Source of the DNA: Escherichia coli
GTDB taxonomy: Bacteria > Pseudomonadota > Gammaproteobacteria > Enterobacterales > Enterobacteriaceae
Length of the DNA stretch: 64,000 nucleotides
Assembly: GCF_016026235.1 (NCBI RefSeq)
Contig: NZ_CP065613.1
Direction: 5' to 3' (one strand)
Position numbers and translations under genes: made by a program
The notes under the pieces: model-generated
What the model was told of the DNA's origin: nothing
The model's input: only the letters and a program-made list of their open reading frames with translations
The model's database searches: none
Shown: piece after piece, positions 3,678-58,040 of the stretch
Layout of the letters: every line of letters begins with the position of its first letter
Position numbering within the stretch: the first letter of the stretch is position 1

Positions 3678-3790
3678 TCACCGGCCTATAAGGAAATTAT
3701 TCACGCCACAGGAAAAAGGCGCAAGCATTGCGATAAAGATGGGGATAAAGAGAGAAAAAACAAGGCCCACCGGAACGGCAGGCCTGAGAA

Positions 3791-5215
3791 TTACGGCTGA
3801 TAATAACCCACACCAAGGTCGTTTTCTTTGCGAGTACGGGCAATCACCGATTCCGGTGTTTCTGCCACGCGCAGACCCATTTCATCTTCAGTACGCACCA
3901 CTTTACCGCGCAGAGAGTTCGGGTAGACGTCGGTAATTTCTACATCGACGAATTTACCGATCATATCCGGTGTGCCCTCGAAGTTGACCACGCGGTTATT
4001 TTCGGTACGCCCGGAAAGCTCCATGATGCTCTTACGCGAAGTCCCTTCTACCAGAATACGCTGGGTGGTGCCGAGCATCCGGCGGCTCCATGCCATCGCT
4101 TGCTGATTGATACGTTCTTGCAGAATATACAGACGTTGCTTCTTCTCTTCTTCCGGAACATCATCAACCATATCGGCGGCTGGTGTACCCGGACGTGCAG
4201 AGAAGATAAAGCTGTAGCTCATGTCGAAATTGACGTCGGCAATCAGCTTCATCGTTTTCTCGAAGTCTTCGGTGGTTTCGCCAGGGAAGCCAACGATGAA
4301 ATCAGAACTGATCTGAATATCTGGACGCGCCGCACGCAGTTTACGGATGATCGCTTTGTACTCCAGCGCCGTATGGGTACGTCCCATCAGGTTCAGAATG
4401 CGATCGGAACCGCTCTGTACCGGCAGATGCAGGAAGCTCACCAGCTCCGGCGTGTCGCGATACACTTCGATGATATCGTCGGTGAATTCGATCGGATGGC
4501 TGGTGGTAAAGCGAATACGATCGATCCCGTCGATCGCAGCAACCAGACGCAACAGATCGGCAAACGATCCGGTGGTGCCGTCGTAGTTCTCACCACGCCA
4601 GGCATTCACATTCTGACCGAGCAGGTTGACTTCACGCACGCCCTGAGCCGCAAGCTGGGCGATCTCAAACAGAATATCGTCGGACGGACGGCTTACCTCT
4701 TCACCACGGGTGTAAGGCACCACGCAGTAGGTGCAATATTTATTGCAGCCTTCCATGATGGAGACAAACGCGGTCGGCCCTTCGGCGCGCGGTTCCGGTA
4801 GACGGTCAAACTTCTCGATTTCGGGGAAGCTGATATCTACAACCGGGCTGCGGTCGCCGCGCACGGAGTTGATCATCTCCGGCAGACGGTGCAGCGTTTG
4901 CGGCCCAAAAATAATATCGACATAGTGGGCGCGCTGGCGAATGTGCTCGCCTTCTTGCGATGCCACGCAGCCACCGACGCCGATAATCAGGTCTGGATTC
5001 TTCTCTTTTAACAGTTTCCAGCGACCCAACTGATGGAAGACTTTTTCCTGAGCCTTCTCGCGGATTGAGCAGGTGTTCAGCAGCAGCACATCCGCTTCTT
5101 CCGCCACGTCGGTCAGTTGATAGCCGTGGGTGGCATCCAGCAGATCGGCCATCTTCGATGAATCGTACTCGTTCATCTGACAGCCCCAGGTTTTAATATG
5201 GAGTTTTTTGGTCAT
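3791..5215 (-). CDS. miaB: tRNA i6A37 methylthiotransferase MiaB (radical SAM), 474 aa
   Basis: [22 protein letters not shown]...; radical-SAM cysteine motif CNKYCTYC; expected length. Confidence 0.95.
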
Positions 5216-6689: not shown

Positions 6690-6764
6690 TGGCTGGGGTA
6701 CGAGGATTCGAACCTCGGAATGCCGGAATCAGAATCCGGTGCCTTACCGCTTGGCGATACCCCA
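6690..6764 (-). tRNA. glnX: tRNA-Gln (anticodon CUG), 75 nt including CCA
   Basis: Reverse complement matches the E. coli tRNA-Gln2 sequence as recalled: UGGGGUAUCGCCAAGCGGUAAGGCACCGGAUUCUGAUUCCGG...CCA; anticodon loop AUUCUGAUU. Confidence 0.97.
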
Positions 6765-6801
6765 ACTGGGTGCACTTACGATGTAAGCGTCTTGAATAAA
6801 T

Positions 6802-6876
6802 TGGCTGGGGTACGAGGATTCGAACCTCGGAATGCCGGAATCAGAATCCGGTGCCTTACCGCTTGGCGATACCCCA
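6802..6876 (-). tRNA. glnV: tRNA-Gln (anticodon CUG, wild-type, i.e. not the supE CUA allele)
   Basis: Identical in sequence to the copy at 6690-6764; anticodon CUG. Confidence 0.97.
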
Positions 6877-6924
6877 ACAAATTGGTTTTTGAATTTGCCG
6901 AACGTATTCGACACATTCAGAATG

Positions 6925-7001
6925 TGGTGGCTACGACGGGATTCGAACCTGTGACCCCATCATTATGAGTGATGTGCTCTAACCAACTGAGCTACGTAGC
7001 C
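6925..7001 (-). tRNA. metU: Elongator tRNA-Met (anticodon CAU), 77 nt
   Basis: Reverse complement GGCUACGUAGCUCAGUUGGUUAGAGCACAUCACUCAUAAUGAUGGGGUCACAGGUUCGAAUCCCGUCGUAGCCACCA. Confidence 0.97.
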
Positions 7002-7016
7002 AGATTGTTTCTTCGA

Positions 7017-7091
7017 TGGCTGGGGTACCTGGATTCGAACCAGGGAATGCCGGTATCAAAAACCGGTGCCTTACCGCTTGGCGATACCCCA
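7017..7091 (-). tRNA. glnW: tRNA-Gln (anticodon UUG)
   Basis: Reverse complement gives a tRNA-Gln1-type sequence with anticodon loop UUUUGAU; CCA encoded. Confidence 0.97.
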
Positions 7092-7125
7092 ATAACCGGG
7101 CGGTGAACCGCTTACTCGAAGAAGA

Positions 7126-7200
7126 TGGCTGGGGTACCTGGATTCGAACCAGGGAATGCCGGTATCAAAAACCGGTGCCTTACCGCTTGGCGATACCCCA
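7126..7200 (-). tRNA. glnU: tRNA-Gln (anticodon UUG)
   Basis: Identical to the copy at 7017-7091. Confidence 0.97.
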
Positions 7201-7223
7201 TCCGTACAACGCTTTCTGGTGAA

Positions 7224-7308
7224 TGGTGCGGGAGGCGAGACTTGAACTCGCACACCTTGCGGCGCCAGAACCTAAATCTGGTGCGTCTACCAATTTCGCC
7301 ACTCCCGC
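7224..7308 (-). tRNA. leuW: tRNA-Leu (anticodon UAG), 85 nt with long variable arm
   Basis: Reverse complement GCGGGAGUGGCGAAAUUGGUAGACGCACCAGAUUUAGGUUCUGGCGCCGCAAGGUGUGCGAGUUCAAGUCUCGCCUCCCGCACCA. Confidence 0.96.
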
Positions 7309-7316
7309 AAAAAAGA

Positions 7317-7393
7317 TGGTGGCTACGACGGGATTCGAACCTGTGACCCCATCATTATGAGTGATGTGCTCTAACCAACTGAGCTACGTAGCC
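7317..7393 (-). tRNA. metT: Elongator tRNA-Met (anticodon CAU)
   Basis: Identical to the copy at 6925-7001; first gene of the minus-strand tRNA operon. Confidence 0.97.
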
Positions 7394-9682: not shown

Positions 9683-9795
9683 ATGCCGGATGCGGCGTGA
9701 ACGCCTTATCCGGCCTACAAAAGCATGAAAATTCAATATATTGCAGGAGCTGCGTAGGCCTGATAAGCGTAGCGCATCAGGCAGTTTGGCGTTTG
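9683..9795. repeat. BIME/RIP element: two inverted REPs flanking an IHF-like core
   Basis: gccggatgcggcgtgaacgccttatccggcctac ... aattcaatatattgcag ... gtaggcctgataagcgtagcgcatcaggc. Confidence 0.8.
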
Positions 9796-16159: not shown

Positions 16160-16250
16160 TGCCTGATGCGACGCTTGACGCGTCTTATCAGGCCTACAAA
16201 AGCTCAGTCCAGGTTGGATAAGACGCTTAAGCGTCGCATCCAACAATGAC
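16160..16250. repeat. REP element pair
   Basis: gcctgatgcgacgcttgacgcgtcttatcaggcctac ... ggataagacgcttaagcgtcgcatcc. Confidence 0.8.
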
Positions 16251-16417
16251 GCAGGACTGGCAAAAGCGGTGGAGATCTTCTCTGCCGCTTTTTTTTTCAT
16301 CAATCATCCCCATAATCCTTGTTAGATTATCAATTTTAAAAAACTAACAGTTGTCAGCCTGTCCCGCTTATAAGATCATACGCCGTTATACGTTGTTTAC
16401 GCTTTGAGGAATCCACG

Positions 16418-20116: not shown

Positions 20117-20443
20117 ATGAAAAAACTGATTCTCATCGCCATGATGGCATCGGGGCTGGTAGCTTGTGCGCAATCAACCGCACCACAGGAAGACAGCCGT
20201 CTGAAAGAGGCATACAGCGCCTGTATCAACACCGCGCAAGGTTCGCCAGAAAAAATTGAAGCCTGCCAGAGCGTGTTAAACGTGCTGAAGAAAGAGAAAC
20301 AACATCAGCAGTTTGCCGACCAGGAAAGTGTACGCGTACTGGATTATCAGCAGTGTCTGCGTGCAACGCAAACCGGAAATGATCAGGCGGTGAAAGCCGA
20401 TTGTGATAAAGTTTGGCAGGAAATTCGCAGTAATAACAAATAA
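20117..20443 (+). CDS. chiQ: Lipoprotein ChiQ (YbfN), 108 aa
   Basis: Lipobox LVAC in MKKLILIAMMASGLVACAQ; co-oriented immediately downstream of chiP. Confidence 0.9.
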   Translation: MKKLILIAMMASGLVACAQSTAPQEDSRLKEAYSACINTAQGSPEKIEACQSVLNVLKKEKQHQQFADQESVRVLDYQQCLRATQTGNDQAVKADCDKVWQEIRSNNK

Positions 20444-20484
20444 GTGAGAGCTGTAACTCTCGCTTTTCTTATTTCCCTTGCATA

Positions 20485-20512
20485 AAAAAGCCAACCCGCA
20501 GGTTGGCTTTTT
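20485..20512. terminator. Bidirectional intrinsic terminator between chiQ (plus) and fur (minus)
   Basis: aaaaagccaacc-cgca-ggttggcttttt, a hairpin flanked by A-run and T-run. Confidence 0.8.
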
Positions 20513-20527
20513 CTCATTCAGGCTGGC

Positions 20528-20974
20528 TTATTTGCCTTCGTGCGCATGTTCATCTTCGCGGCAATCGCCTTCGGCACAGTGACCGTAAAGATAGAGACTG
20601 TGGTTAGTCAGGCGAATGCCATGTTTTGCGGCAATTTCACGCTGACGCGCTTCGATGGAATCATCACTAAATTCGATAACCTTGCCGCAGTCGAGGCAGA
20701 TCAGGTGATCGTGGTGATGTTGCTGTGTCAGTTCAAATACGGATTTACCGCCTTCAAAATTGTGGCGGGTGACGATACCAGCGTCGTCAAACTGGTTCAG
20801 TACGCGATATACCGTAGCCAGACCAATTTCTTCACCCATATCGATCAGACGTTTGTATAAATCTTCCGCACTGACGTGATGGTTGTCCGGCTCCTGAAGA
20901 ACTTCCAGGATTTTTAAACGAGGAAGCGTTACTTTCAGGCCAGCTTTCTTTAGGGCGGTATTGTTATCAGTCAT
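20528..20974 (-). CDS. fur: Ferric uptake regulator Fur, 148 aa
   Basis: ORF MTDNNTALKKAGLKVTLPRLKILEVLQEPDNHHVSAEDLYKRLIDMGEEIGLATVYRVLNQFDDAGIV...; His/Cys-rich C-terminus. Confidence 0.97.
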   Translation of the reverse strand: MTDNNTALKKAGLKVTLPRLKILEVLQEPDNHHVSAEDLYKRLIDMGEEIGLATVYRVLNQFDDAGIVTRHNFEGGKSVFELTQQHHHDHLICLDCGKVIEFSDDSIEARQREIAAKHGIRLTNHSLYLYGHCAEGDCREDEHAHEGK

Positions 20975-21053
20975 GCGGAATCTGTCCTGTTACTAAGCGG
21001 TTCACTTCATTAGAAGAAGTGACAGAATTTGCTCTTGAGATAATGCGTATCAT
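20967..21053 (-). CDS. uof: Fur leader peptide Uof, 28 aa, translationally coupled to fur
   Basis: Small ORF MIRIISRANSVTSSNEVNRLVTGQIPHD; its TGA stop overlaps the fur ATG (catgACTGA context). Confidence 0.7.
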   Translation of the reverse strand: MIRIISRANSVTSSNEVNRLVTGQIPHD

Positions 21054-21229
21054 TATAGAATTGCCACGCCTAAATGAAAACCACAAGTCCCTGGCAAATA
21101 TTGTTAATAAAAACGTGGCACAGCTTACATTTACAACGGCAAGGCCACTTGAACACCGGGACATTGTACAGGTACAACAGCAAAAGTTACAAATTTGTAG
21201 CAATTATTTTGATTGGCATTATCTATTAA

Positions 21230-21256
21230 TACGGCGTAGACATGAGTCTACGCCGC
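21230..21256 (-). terminator. Hairpin downstream of fldA (putative terminator or processing site)
   Basis: cggcgtagac-atga-gtctacgccg perfect 10-bp stem immediately after the fldA stop on the minus strand. Confidence 0.5.
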
Positions 21257-21262
21257 ATCACA

Positions 21263-21793
21263 TCAGGCATTGAGAATTTCGTCGAGATGCAACTCTTCAG
21301 AAATCTGTTTAACCCATTTTTCTACACGTTCAGCGGTCAGTTCCGGCTGACGGTCTTCGTCGATAGCCAGACCGACAAAGTGGTCGTCATCTGCCAGACC
21401 TTTTGATGCTTCGAAATGATAGCCCGCAGTTGGCCAGTGACCAACGATGGTTGCACCGCGCGGTTCAATGATGTCGCGGATGGTGCCCAATGCATCGCAG
21501 AAATATTCGGCGTAATCTTCCTGGTCACCACAACCAAACAGCGCAACCAGTTTGCCATTGAAATCAATCTCTTCGAGAGTCGGGAAGAAGTCATCCCAGT
21601 CACACTGCGCTTCGCCATAATACCAGGTTGGGATGCCCAGCAGCAGAATGTCATAAGCTTCCAGATCTTCTTTGCTGCTTTTTGCAATGTCATGGACATC
21701 GGCAACGTCTTTACCAAGCTGTTTTTGAATCATTTTTGCGATATTTTCGGTATTACCGGTGTCGCTGCCGAAAAAGATGCCAGTGATAGCCAT
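21263..21793 (-). CDS. fldA: Flavodoxin 1 FldA, 176 aa
   Basis: Protein begins [20 protein letters not shown] (flavodoxin FMN-binding signature); ATG at 21793; the 39-aa ORF-table N-extension is rejected. Confidence 0.95.
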
Positions 21794-21932
21794 GAGTGAA
21801 ATAACCTCTTGAAACTTATTGAAATGGGGGTGGAAAATTGCCCACGGATAAAGGCAATCATAGCAGAACAGGCAGTCTTGCGGAATCAGCAAACGAGCAG
21901 GACTGCACACTGTGCTACATGAAACTGGAAAT

Positions 21933-22226
21933 TTAAACGATGCCCTGACTACGCAGCGCCGCCAGTTGCTGCATTAACATCTCTTCGATCAGTTCGCTAC
22001 GGCTCATATTGCGCGATTCCGCCAGCTCGTTCAGCGCCTCGACAGCTTCCGCGTTCAGCTTCAGTTCGACACGCTTAAGGCCACGTACTTTGTCGCGTTT
22101 TAGCTGGTTGCGTTTATTAATACGCAGCTGTTCATCGCGCGAAAGCGGATTAGTTTTCGGTCGTCCCGGTCGACGCTCGTGCGCGAACAGATCTAATGTC
22201 GTACGGTCCGTTTGTTCTTTGGCCAT
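21933..22226 (-). CDS. ybfE: LexA-regulated protein YbfE, 97 aa
   Basis: [49 protein letters not shown]...; the start at 22226 is chosen from the remembered protein, the ORF table extends 23 aa upstream. Confidence 0.8.
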
Positions 22227-22344
22227 GATCTTGGTGACTTCGGGGGAAACAATCAGCCAGGCCTCTGCCCGGATGGATAGCGCGCCATAATACATCAGCG
22301 CGATGAGTCACGCCAACGCCCACGCGCGGAAAGCGACGCGGACG

Positions 22345-22360
22345 CTGGGTTTTTAATCAG
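22345..22360 (-). promoter_or_regulatory. Candidate LexA box (CTG-N10-CAG) upstream of ybfE
   Basis: Minus-strand CTGATTAAAAACCCAG about 120 nt upstream of the ybfE start, immediately after the ybfF stop. Confidence 0.5.
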
Positions 22361-22365
22361 TTGCG

Positions 22366-23130
22366 TTAATCATTGAGATAGCGACGGATAGCGCGTAATA
22401 CCGCATCCGGTTTTTCAGCATGGACCCAGTGACCCGCGCCTGCAATCACATGCGCCCGTGCCTGTGGAAATTGTGCCAGTAAATCATCACGGTACTGCTC
22501 GCTAACATACGGAGAATTGCCGCCAGGGATAAACAGGGCAGGGTGATCCCATGCCGGGATTTTCTCCCAACCCACAATATGCGGATACTGATCCCACAAT
22601 ACCGGCACGTTAAAGCGCCACTCCCCGTCAACAAAAGATTTCAACAGAAACTGAATCACCCCTTCTTCATTAAGATGCTGGCGCATTATTGCTGCTGCTT
22701 GCTGGCGAGTTTGTGCGTCCGATTCACTGACCGCGTTGATAGCTGCGAAAATCTCATCATGACGGCGTACGTGATAGTCGACCGGTGCGATATCGATCGC
22801 CACCAGTTTATCGATGCGATCGGGGGCCAGTGCAGTAAGTGCCATTACCGCTTTACCGCCCATGGAGTGACCGATAAATGTTGCTTTGTCGATCTGCAGT
22901 GCATCCAGGGTATCAACAAGATCCTGCGCCATCGCCGGGTAATTCATTACCGGCTCTCTCGGTGAAAGACCGTGGTTACGCATATCAACCTGGATGATAT
23001 TGTGATCGTTTACCAGATCGCGAGCCAGTACGCCAAGGTTGTCGAGGCTACCAAACAGACCATGGACAAGAACGATGGGAGAATTATTGTGCTGGTTTTG
23101 TGCAGTTTGCGCGCGGATATTCAATTTCAT
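22366..23130 (-). CDS. ybfF: Esterase YbfF (alpha/beta hydrolase), 254 aa
   Basis: Nucleophile elbow GHSMGG; recognised sequence MKLNIRAQTAQNQHNNSPIVLVHGLFGSLDNLG. Confidence 0.93.
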   Translation of the reverse strand: MKLNIRAQTAQNQHNNSPIVLVHGLFGSLDNLGVLARDLVNDHNIIQVDMRNHGLSPREPVMNYPAMAQDLVDTLDALQIDKATFIGHSMGGKAVMALTALAPDRIDKLVAIDIAPVDYHVRRHDEIFAAINAVSESDAQTRQQAAAIMRQHLNEEGVIQFLLKSFVDGEWRFNVPVLWDQYPHIVGWEKIPAWDHPALFIPGGNSPYVSEQYRDDLLAQFPQARAHVIAGAGHWVHAEKPDAVLRAIRRYLND

Positions 23131-25589: not shown

Positions 25590-25690
25590 TTGCCTGATGC
25601 GCTACGCTTATCAGGCCTGCGAGGATGGTGCAATATATTGAATTTAAGCGATTTTGTAGGCCGGATAAGGCGTTCATGCCGGATCCAGCA
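25590..25690. repeat. BIME/RIP element (two inverted REPs plus IHF-like core) at the pgm-kdpE junction
   Basis: gcctgatgcgctacgcttatcaggcctgc ... caatatattgaatttaagcg ... gtaggccggataaggcgttcatgccggatcc. Confidence 0.8.
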
Positions 25691-25699
25691 TTTAACCGC

Positions 25700-26377
25700 C
25701 TAAAGCATAAACCGATACCCAATACCGGTTTCAGTAATGAAATGGCGGGGGCGAGTGGGATCCTGTTCCAGTTTTTGTCGCAGATGTCCCATATAAATAC
25801 GCAAATAATGACTGTGTTCGACCGCGTTTGGCCCCCACACCTGGTTAAGGAGTTGGCGCTGGGTGAGCACTTTCCCGGCATTATTCAGCAGCACCGCCAG
25901 CAGGCGGAATTCAATCGGCGTGAGATGCACCTCTTCCTCACCCCGGTGAATCACGCGGGCGGCTAAATCGACGGTAACATCGGAAAATTTCACCAGCGGA
26001 TCTGGCGCGGCGGTGGCGGAGTGGCGGCGTAAAGCGACGCGCAGACGGGCCTGCAATTCGCCAATGCCAAACGGCTTACTTAGATAATCATCCGCTCCGG
26101 CATCCAGCGCGGCGATTTTGTCGCTCTCTTCGCTGCGTGCGGAAAGCACAATCACCGGCACCGCGCTCCACTGGCGCAGGTCGCGGATAAACTCAATCCC
26201 ATCACCATCGGGCAGGCCGAGATCGAGAATAATCAAATCTGGCTTACGGGTTGCCGCTTCCAGCAAGCCGCGTTGCAGCGTTTCGGCCTCAAAGACGCGC
26301 ATACCGTCGCCCTCCAGCGCCGTGCGCAGAAAGCGACGAATAGCCTGTTCATCTTCAACAATCAGAACGTTTGTCAC
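25700..26377 (-). CDS. kdpE: Response regulator KdpE (OmpR family), 225 aa
   Basis: [66 protein letters not shown]...; receiver plus winged-helix domains. Confidence 0.96.
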   Translation of the reverse strand: MTNVLIVEDEQAIRRFLRTALEGDGMRVFEAETLQRGLLEAATRKPDLIILDLGLPDGDGIEFIRDLRQWSAVPVIVLSARSEESDKIAALDAGADDYLSKPFGIGELQARLRVALRRHSATAAPDPLVKFSDVTVDLAARVIHRGEEEVHLTPIEFRLLAVLLNNAGKVLTQRQLLNQVWGPNAVEHSHYLRIYMGHLRQKLEQDPTRPRHFITETGIGYRFML

Positions 26378-34004: not shown

Positions 34005-34040
34005 TGAAAACCGCTAGTGGAAACGCTGGCGGTTTTTTTC
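34005..34040 (+). terminator. Intrinsic terminator downstream of ybfA
   Basis: aaccgc...gcggtt hairpin followed by TTTTTTT (34034-34040). Confidence 0.65.
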
Positions 34041-34085
34041 TTATCGCCGTCTACACTTACTCCTGTAAACCGTTCAGGAGCAGTA

Positions 34086-53499: not shown

Positions 53500-53640
53500 G
53501 TAGGCCTGATAAGACGCGCAAGCGTCGCATCAGGCAACCAGTGCCGGATGCGGCGTGAACGCCTTATCCGGCCTACAAGTCATTACCCGTAGGCCTGATA
53601 AGCGCAGCGCATCAGGCGTAACAAAGAAATGCAGGAAATC
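53500..53640. repeat. Cluster of three REP elements between sdhB and sucA
   Basis: gtaggcctgataagacgcgcaagcgtcgcatcaggc; gccggatgcggcgtgaacgccttatccggcctac; gtaggcctgataagcgcagcgcatcaggc. Confidence 0.85.
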
Positions 53641-57854: not shown

Positions 57855-58040
57855 AGACCGGATAAGACATTATCGCCTTCTCCGGCAATTGAAGCCTGAT
57901 GCGACGCTTAACGCGTCTTATCAGGCCTACGGGAAGCACCGATGTAGGTCGGATAAGGCGCTCGCGCCGCATCCGACAAGCGATGCCAGATGCGACGCTT
58001 ACACGTCTTATCAGGCCTACGGGTGACCGACAATACCCGG
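57855..58040. repeat. REP element cluster between sucB and sucC
   Basis: gcctgatgcgacgcttaacgcgtcttatcaggcctac, gtaggtcggataaggcgctcgcgccgcatccgac, gccagatgcgacgcttacacgtcttatcaggcctac. Confidence 0.85.

Follow-up and report, generated by a model that had tools for sequence, protein, structure and literature searches.

The uof–fur leader of Escherichia coli: a K-12 arrangement kept intact, with an upstream reading frame set among promoter, operator and fur start

Main

Does the short reading frame uof, which lies ahead of fur in Escherichia coli, still form an intact unit with fur in the strain studied here, and on what would a coupling between the two depend? As summarized at second hand in papers citing Vecerek et al. 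(2007), translation of fur is coupled to translation of uof, RyhB blocks initiation at uof, and a MiaB-dependent UCA codon within uof ties its decoding to iron. A sequence-only reading of a 64-kb stretch of E. coli DNA (the window, meaning the whole stretch analysed) had described uof as a 28-codon ORF whose TGA overlaps the fur ATG, and had taken this overlap as the basis of the coupling. Here we follow up that reading by examining the junction itself, its match to K-12, the promoter and operator signals around the uof start, the fate of the upstream ORF (uORF) across Enterobacterales, and the predicted RNA structures of the leader.

Results

Reading frames at the junction

Both uof and fur lie on the minus strand, which the sequence-only reading had left unstated. 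The position that it had given for a 28-codon ORF ahead of fur proved exact: the ORF list and translation place uof, the fur leader peptide, at 20967..21053 (−), with 28 sense codons and a TGA, encoding MIRIISRANSVTSSNEVNRLVTGQIPHD. The ORF starts at an ATG at 21053–21051, stops at a TGA at 20969–20967 (−), and reads ATG ATA CGC ATT ATC TCA AGA GCA AAT TCT GTC ACT TCT TCT AAT GAA GTG AAC CGC TTA GTA ACA GGA CAG ATT CCG CAT GAC TGA. The fur coding sequence (20974..20528 (−); 148 amino acids) begins at an ATG at 20974–20972 (−); it was identified from the ORF list, from a match to NCBIfam NF006999 at 309 bits, from Pfam FUR and from RefSeq annotation on identical DNA.

The two ORFs share the 8 nt ATGACTGA (20967..20974 (−)), read directly from the sequence, and the K-12 annotation has the same overlap. 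The junction as a whole is CCGC-ATGACTGA-TAAC, read in the uof frame as CAT GAC TGA, and the uof TGA corresponds to fur nucleotides +6..+8. Hence the earlier statement that the TGA overlaps the fur ATG is loosely worded: the ORFs do overlap by 8 nt, but the stop begins 2 nt past the ATG. The string ATGA contains another TGA (20973–20971), which, being in the third frame, does not terminate uof. Within uof, codons 23–24 include the fur Shine–Dalgarno sequence AGGA (20985..20988 (−), at −14..−11), and codon 6 is UCA (Ser; TCA in the codon table; 21036..21038 (−)), the codon with a reported requirement for MiaB-modified tRNA.

Identity to K-12 and spread within E. coli

Aligned with K-12 MG1655 from the end of fldA into fur, the leader is identical at 331 of 331 positions, which bears out the earlier description of the arrangement as intact; the same fldA–fur spacer is also identical in one of the most divergent strains among the matches listed. 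That the arrangement is known biology is equally borne out. K-12 RefSeq annotates uof (b4637, 'RyhB-regulated fur leader peptide') at 710639–710725 and fur (b0683) at 710200–710646, likewise with an 8-nt overlap; the K-12 uof has the same sequence and position, and its coupling to fur is published.

The Uof peptide passes the NCBIfam equivalog NF011344, 'fur leader peptide', at 85.2 bits (cutoff 71) over its full length (1–28), and the identical DNA of K-12 and other strains is annotated with the protein accession WP_001406816.1. A Pfam search returned no family for the 28-aa peptide. Using a 1.5-kb query, we found full-length matches to the uof–fur region in 5424 of 5426 complete E. coli genomes, and all of the matches listed were annotated 'uof: fur leader peptide'. 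With a 136-nt query centred on uof, identity was 98.5–100%, about three quarters of 40 evenly sampled matches being exactly 100%.

Judged by its sequence, the ORF belongs to the uof family, given its 28 codons on the same strand as fur, its model score, the position of its stop and its UCA codon. The uof–fur leader of the window is thus one that is already described, near-universal in E. coli and unchanged from K-12. Since the standard Fur autoregulatory leader is present, iron regulation at the uof–fur locus of this strain is not unusual.

Several side observations concern the collection and the rest of the window. The junction gave 5427 matches in the E. coli collection, one of them on a plasmid record, and two complete genomes had no match. 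At ~25690–25702, pgm nearly abuts kdpE, and the 5.7-kb ybfP-ybfG-ybfI-potE-speF-speFL segment of K-12 is missing; this contiguous pgm–kdpE junction is common to 353 of 5426 E. coli genomes. Between ybfA and ybgA, at ~34038–34048, the 9.6-kb RhsC element (rhsC-ybfB-ybfO-ybfC-ybfQ-ybfL-ybfD) is missing, and an empty RhsC site is common to 1309 of 5426 genomes. The nagE–glnS spacer (16184–16264) measures ~80 nt compared with ~16 nt in K-12, a small insertion. From colinearity with K-12, miaB, the gene for the Fe–S tRNA methylthiolase implicated in uof decoding, should lie at ~3790–5215 (−), and sdhCDAB, a classic RyhB target, from ~50260 onward (+). Rfam gave no match over the fur leader (20900–21300); its 11 matches in the window at the gathering threshold are tRNAs and REP-derived families. 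Seven tRNA genes at 6693–7393 (−) correspond to K-12 glnX-glnV-metU-glnW-glnU-leuW-metT. Matches to naRNA4 and ES036, families that we take to be built on REP-type intergenic repeats, fall at 53503–53573 (−), 57947–58017 (+), 36073–36115 (+) and 9719–9761 (+).

Chance expectation and a forced stop

Around 19% of random sequences with the base composition of the spacer stay open for 27 further codons after an ATG, and the length of the uof ORF is by itself unremarkable. The terminal overlap is forced, because the fur start ATG-ACT-GA (Met-Thr-Asp, ATG ACT GAY) puts a stop in both other frames within 8 nt. As fur codons 2–3 create the overlapping stop, any upstream ORF that reaches fur in a non-fur frame ends there.

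These figures favour a rival reading in which uof is largely a by-product: its ATG would come from the −10 element and the Fur box (TATAATGAT...), its stop from fur codons 2–3 (ACT GAY) and its middle from a hairpin, and coupling would add little to Fur output or would do so only in some lineages. We consider this improbable, and weigh it below as the evidence arises. That uof is real rests on the experimentally studied identical allele, not on statistics, and the comparative data add weaker support.

The uof start lies within promoter and Fur box

The classical sigma-70 fur promoter (21052..21080 (−)) consists of a −35 element TTTTCA at 21080–21075, a 17-nt spacer and a −10 hexamer TATAAT at 21057–21052; scoring 10/12 in the promoter scan, it is the best sigma-70-like site of the region. 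The uof ATG (21053–21051) overlaps this −10 hexamer. Uof codons 1–5 together with the four preceding bases also make up a Fur box, TATAATGATACGCATTATC (21039..21057 (−)), with 16/19 consensus matches; it is the sole match in the 64-kb window, with 0 expected by chance, and has been reported to overlap the Pfur-a −10 element. Because the ATG sits in both the −10 hexamer and the Fur box, its conservation is confounded with constraint on promoter and operator. This placement, too, speaks for uof as a by-product.

According to two papers that cite databases, uof has a promoter of its own further upstream, and fur transcription start sites a and b fall within the uof ORF. RNA-seq reportedly supports a ybfE-fldA-uof-fur operon with three promoters, and in one study RyhB lowered the shorter fur mRNA and not the uof–fur mRNA. 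The start sites used here combine these literature statements with promoter geometry. Accordingly placed, transcripts from the classical promoter should start ~7 nt past TATAAT, near 21046–21044, inside uof. Starting past the uof AUG and the RyhB site, they would contain neither and would escape RyhB/uof control. With the uof ATG and the RyhB site located at the −10 element or upstream of it, only transcripts with a start further upstream can be subject to coupling. The reported starts inside uof again lend weight to the by-product reading.

A conserved regulatory block upstream (21163..21240 (−)), most positions of which are at least 90% conserved among 18 Enterobacteriaceae spacers, contains a second promoter-like site (−35 TTGTAA at 21192–21187 and −10 TACAAT at 21168–21163; 9/12 in the scan). 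This site is the likely source of uof-containing transcripts, which would be expected to start near 21156. Read-through from fldA, the flavodoxin 1 gene (21263..21793 (−); identified as an ORF and by annotation of identical DNA), also carries uof–fur. Directly after the fldA stop lies a perfect 10-bp stem with a 4-nt loop (21232–21255 (−)), followed by TATTAATAG with no T run; it was not called as a terminator, and a stem that lacks a T tract is compatible with the known fldA–fur read-through.

The upstream ORF across Enterobacterales

For comparison we used 80 species-level Enterobacterales loci from one Fur scan. Exact copies of the promoter TTTTCA-N17-TATAAT occur in 59 of the 80 species and near-exact ones in 72, among them species that have no uORF, a point for the by-product reading. 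The ATG embedded in the promoter is present in 72/80. In 48 of these 72 species the ORF that it opens runs as far as the fur start: 37 times in the E. coli frame, ending ACTGA, 7 times in the other frame with a true ATGA at its end, and 4 times in the fur frame, where no stop intervenes. In 24/72 the ORF closes early. Altogether, 32 of the 80 species have a uORF that is closed early or has no ATG. Salmonella enterica subsp. arizonae, Citrobacter sedlakii and Atlantibacter are among them, and in Trabulsiella the ATG is lost. In Salmonella enterica subsp. arizonae and Citrobacter sedlakii, the uORF has 16 codons and terminates 30 nt short of fur. Early stops recur through single-base length changes, mostly in the loop of the hairpin described below (Citrobacter sedlakii, Citrobacter sp. 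Awk 4, Salmonella enterica subsp. arizonae, Enterobacter sp. Bisph1, Pluralibacter sp. and Klebsiella/Raoultella). Such independent 1-nt changes break the frame in L008, L017, L020, L030, L044 and L040/L055 with the hairpin persisting, a further point for the by-product reading.

Some loci have unusual junctions. In Enterobacter asburiae (L048), the uORF has no TGA because of a synonymous ACT-to-ACA change at fur codon 2, and extends to 49 codons, ~70 nt into fur. In Buttiauxella, Dryocola and Enterobacter sp. R1 (L059, L060, L062, L065), the ATG is in frame with fur and opens a formal, N-terminally extended Fur ORF of 172–173 codons. At L040, L055, L025 and L033 (Klebsiella oxytoca, Raoultella and Kluyvera), the hairpin loop holds an ATG ~37 nt ahead of fur, which begins at 1501 in these loci. 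Klebsiella oxytoca and Raoultella have no full uORF, and the loop ATG gives them a 14-codon ORF, MEVDRLATGQIPHD, that keeps the frame and the stop of E. coli; Kluyvera has the ATG embedded in the promoter as well.

Other comparative patterns count against uof as a by-product. The ATG frame is stop-free to fur in 48/80 species, compared with 3/80 and ~27/80 for the two other frames, counts that are not phylogenetically independent. The ORF is still open after frame-changing indels in Mangrovibacter, Cedecea and Buttiauxella, and Klebsiella and Kluyvera offer an in-frame alternative ATG. Variation in uof codons 18–21 falls mostly at third positions (entropy 0.18/0.11/0.69). Published genetics on the exact allele of the window, as given in secondary summaries, contradict the by-product reading as well. 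Taken together, the comparative patterns are suggestive of selection on uORF translation; they go no further because the species counts lack phylogenetic independence.

Conservation of the peptide and of its UCA codon is limited. Uof residues 5–15 are poorly conserved, which also fits a by-product. In the 28-codon uORFs of other genera, codon 6 encodes Pro in 11 and Ser in 11, CCA replacing UCA in half of the distinct uORFs; conservation of the UCA codon is confined to Escherichia and Citrobacter.

A covarying hairpin inside uof

Codons 11–17 of uof form a predicted hairpin, UCACUUC-UUCUAAU-GAAGUGA (21002..21022 (−); −48..−28 from the fur AUG), which is present in both minimum free energy (MFE) folds. 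In E. coli it has a 7-bp stem, a ΔG of −8.5 kcal/mol and a z score of about −2.8, and the fur Shine–Dalgarno sequence lies outside it. Searched species by species, nearly all Enterobacteriaceae have a hairpin in this position, with loops of 3–8 nt and stems that differ between species (ACUUCC/GGAAGU, UUGCUCC/GGAGCGA, CGCUCA/UGAGCG and GCCC/GGGC). Erwiniaceae and Pectobacteriaceae have just a weaker GGCU/AGCC stem; with both families included, the mean z is −1.7 over 71 distinct leaders.

The stem shows covariation. In a MAFFT alignment of 36 leaders, 80.3% of cells pair compared with 70.6% after shuffling (0 of 500 shuffles reach this value), double changes occur in 7 of 8 pairs, and sliding the partner lowers pairing to 30–49%. 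Covariance-model realignment of 49 sequences gave 83.7% pairing compared with 73.4%, and a covariation score of 0.330 compared with 0.189 (0/500). Examples are a position with AU in 32 and GC in 9 leaders, and another with UA in 32, CG in 9 and UG in 4. The hairpin emerged only with local alignment and covariance-model realignment; RNAalifold on the MAFFT alignment of all Enterobacterales returned invariant GG/CC pairs alone, the hairpin being out of register between clades. No Rfam family covers the hairpin, and it is unmentioned in the literature searched, though structure probing from 2007 may already describe it.

Loop length varies freely, so the frame of the uORF has been destroyed repeatedly (Salmonella arizonae, Citrobacter sedlakii, Pluralibacter and others). 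That the hairpin covaries is one more observation in keeping with uof as a by-product. We tentatively raise the possibility, itself doubtful, that the most strongly conserved elements of the fur leader are the promoter, the Fur box and the mid-uof hairpin rather than the uORF, with coupling through uof an addition, restricted to some lineages, to an older RNA element that might serve mRNA stability, ribosome pausing or protein binding. If this were true, RyhB would have to control Fur in a different way in those genera whose uORF is broken.

A further rival reading is trpL-type attenuation, in which ribosome stalling on uof would switch a terminator and an antiterminator and thereby control transcription into fur. 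The ORF is short and contains rare or modification-sensitive codons (AUA, AGA, UCA, UCU three times and UUA), and EcoCyc lists uof among 'leader peptides'. However, no terminator-like stem with a T tract occurs between 21053 and 20974, the terminator-like sites in 20400–22400 all being elsewhere, and the sequence after the single hairpin is AACCGCUUAGUAAC, with no U tract. Because the uof stop sits inside fur, there is no room for an attenuator; 3′-end evidence for one was not found in the literature searched. We regard attenuation as very unlikely. Least credible of all is that the 28-aa Uof is a functional small protein whose product matters beyond its translation: where the ORF is present, the peptide keeps its C-terminal half (EVNRLATGQIPHD), but this conservation coincides with the 3′ arm of the hairpin, the fur Shine–Dalgarno sequence and the fur start, which are kept even in species with a broken frame, and the N terminus coincides with the Fur box, residues 5–15 vary, Pfam has no family for the peptide and the ORF has been lost repeatedly.

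RyhB pairing and the fur initiation region

A candidate RyhB pairing site, UAGGCGUGGCAAUUCU (21057..21072 (−)), lies just 5′ of the uof AUG and would pair with RyhB nucleotides 37–57 at −11.0 kcal/mol (RNAduplex), the RyhB sequence being taken from the K-12 record. In the candidate duplex, RyhB G44 and C45 pair with the GC of GGCAAU, and the RyhB G44C/C45G exchange has been reported to abolish uof/fur repression. The duplex at the uof start (−11 kcal/mol) is no better than shuffled controls, and the best RyhB duplex anywhere in the leader (−13.8 kcal/mol) is weaker than the mean best of shuffled leaders (−16.1 kcal/mol). The pairing is therefore not confirmed computationally, in agreement with a benchmarking paper in which none of the computational methods evaluated predicted the published RyhB–uof interaction.

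Neither the uof nor the fur AUG has a strong Shine–Dalgarno sequence: anti-Shine–Dalgarno duplexes reach −3.6 kcal/mol for uof and −4.0 kcal/mol for fur, compared with −6.5 kcal/mol for fldA. The weak uof site also accords with the by-product reading. The MFE fold contains two pairings here: the GGA of the fur Shine–Dalgarno sequence, which is the same in all 69 aligned Enterobacterales leaders, with a UCC that lies 5 bases further downstream, and UUAGU with ACUGA, spanning the fur start codon. Pairing at the fur start is weak (a 3-bp GGA/UCC helix; overall z −1.86), and the GGA/UCC columns are invariant, so they show no covariation. The predicted fold around the fur start fits, weakly, a masked initiation region.

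We also considered a long-range 10-bp helix in the E. coli MFE fold (−12.5 kcal/mol) between UUUAGG.GUGG 5′ of uof and fur +17..+26, CCGCCCUAAA, and rejected it on conservation. The mean energy of the cognate duplex over 70 distinct species leaders is −5.0 kcal/mol, compared with −5.5 kcal/mol for shuffled arms. The complementarity (21064–21074 with 20948–20958 (−), in fur codons 6–9) is Escherichia-specific: E. coli has GCC CTA there, and other genera have GCA TTA.

Discussion

The explanation that we hold with good confidence is that the window carries the E. coli uof–fur leader unchanged from K-12, together with its published mechanism, which would act on long transcripts only. RyhB- and MiaB-sensitive coupling at the allele of the window is supported, in so far as this allele is identical to the one tested in K-12. 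The sequence-only reading had gone further in naming the overlap as the basis of the coupling; that the 8 nt themselves play this part is an assumption, the sources stating only that the two translations are coupled.

Under the proposed mechanism, fur mRNAs whose 5′ end lies upstream of 21053, made from an upstream promoter or by fldA read-through, would offer ribosomes the uof AUG as a start. The ribosomes would cross 28 codons, the 7-bp hairpin and the fur Shine–Dalgarno sequence and terminate at the UGA, 2 nt beyond the fur AUG, and Fur synthesis would depend on this passage of ribosomes through uof, that is, on translational coupling. When iron is scarce, Fur would release ryhB, and RyhB would pair just 5′ of the uof AUG, block uof initiation and lower Fur synthesis. 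An inactive MiaB, an Fe–S enzyme, would lead to poor decoding of the uof UCA and so provide a second brake.

The textbook coupling of uof and fur thus depends on an ORF that owes its start and its stop to other signals, is absent or frameshifted in several close relatives and can act on only a subset of fur transcripts. What we add is the placement of its start codon in the −10 element and Fur box, the stop forced by fur, the patchy distribution of the uORF and the covarying hairpin, and these should be of modest use for work on Fur, RyhB and uORFs.

The closest known system is K-12 uof–fur itself (Vecerek, Moll & Blasi, EMBO J 2007), with the same 87-nt ORF, 331-nt spacer, overlap, Fur box, promoter elements and UCA codon. 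The leader shows no differences from it, whereas the surrounding window differs in lacking the speF–potE region and the RhsC element. In Pseudomonas aeruginosa, the sRNA PhrS likewise acts at the initiation region of a short uORF that is coupled to a downstream regulator gene (PhrS–uof–pqsR). PhrS, however, activates by opening structure at the ribosome-binding site of the uORF, whereas RyhB represses, and the sequences and regulon are unrelated. The action of GcvB on the thrL and ivbL leader peptides is similar in that an sRNA blocks leader initiation and downstream expression falls; these leaders use transcription attenuation, whereas uof–fur has no attenuator. Termination–reinitiation pairs of the ATGA/TGATG type likewise have a stop within a few nucleotides of the downstream start and a Shine–Dalgarno sequence inside the upstream ORF. 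In such pairs the stop and start share bases, whereas the uof stop comes 2 nt after the fur start codon; a true ATGA does close the uORF homologue of Mangrovibacter, Cedecea and some other genera.
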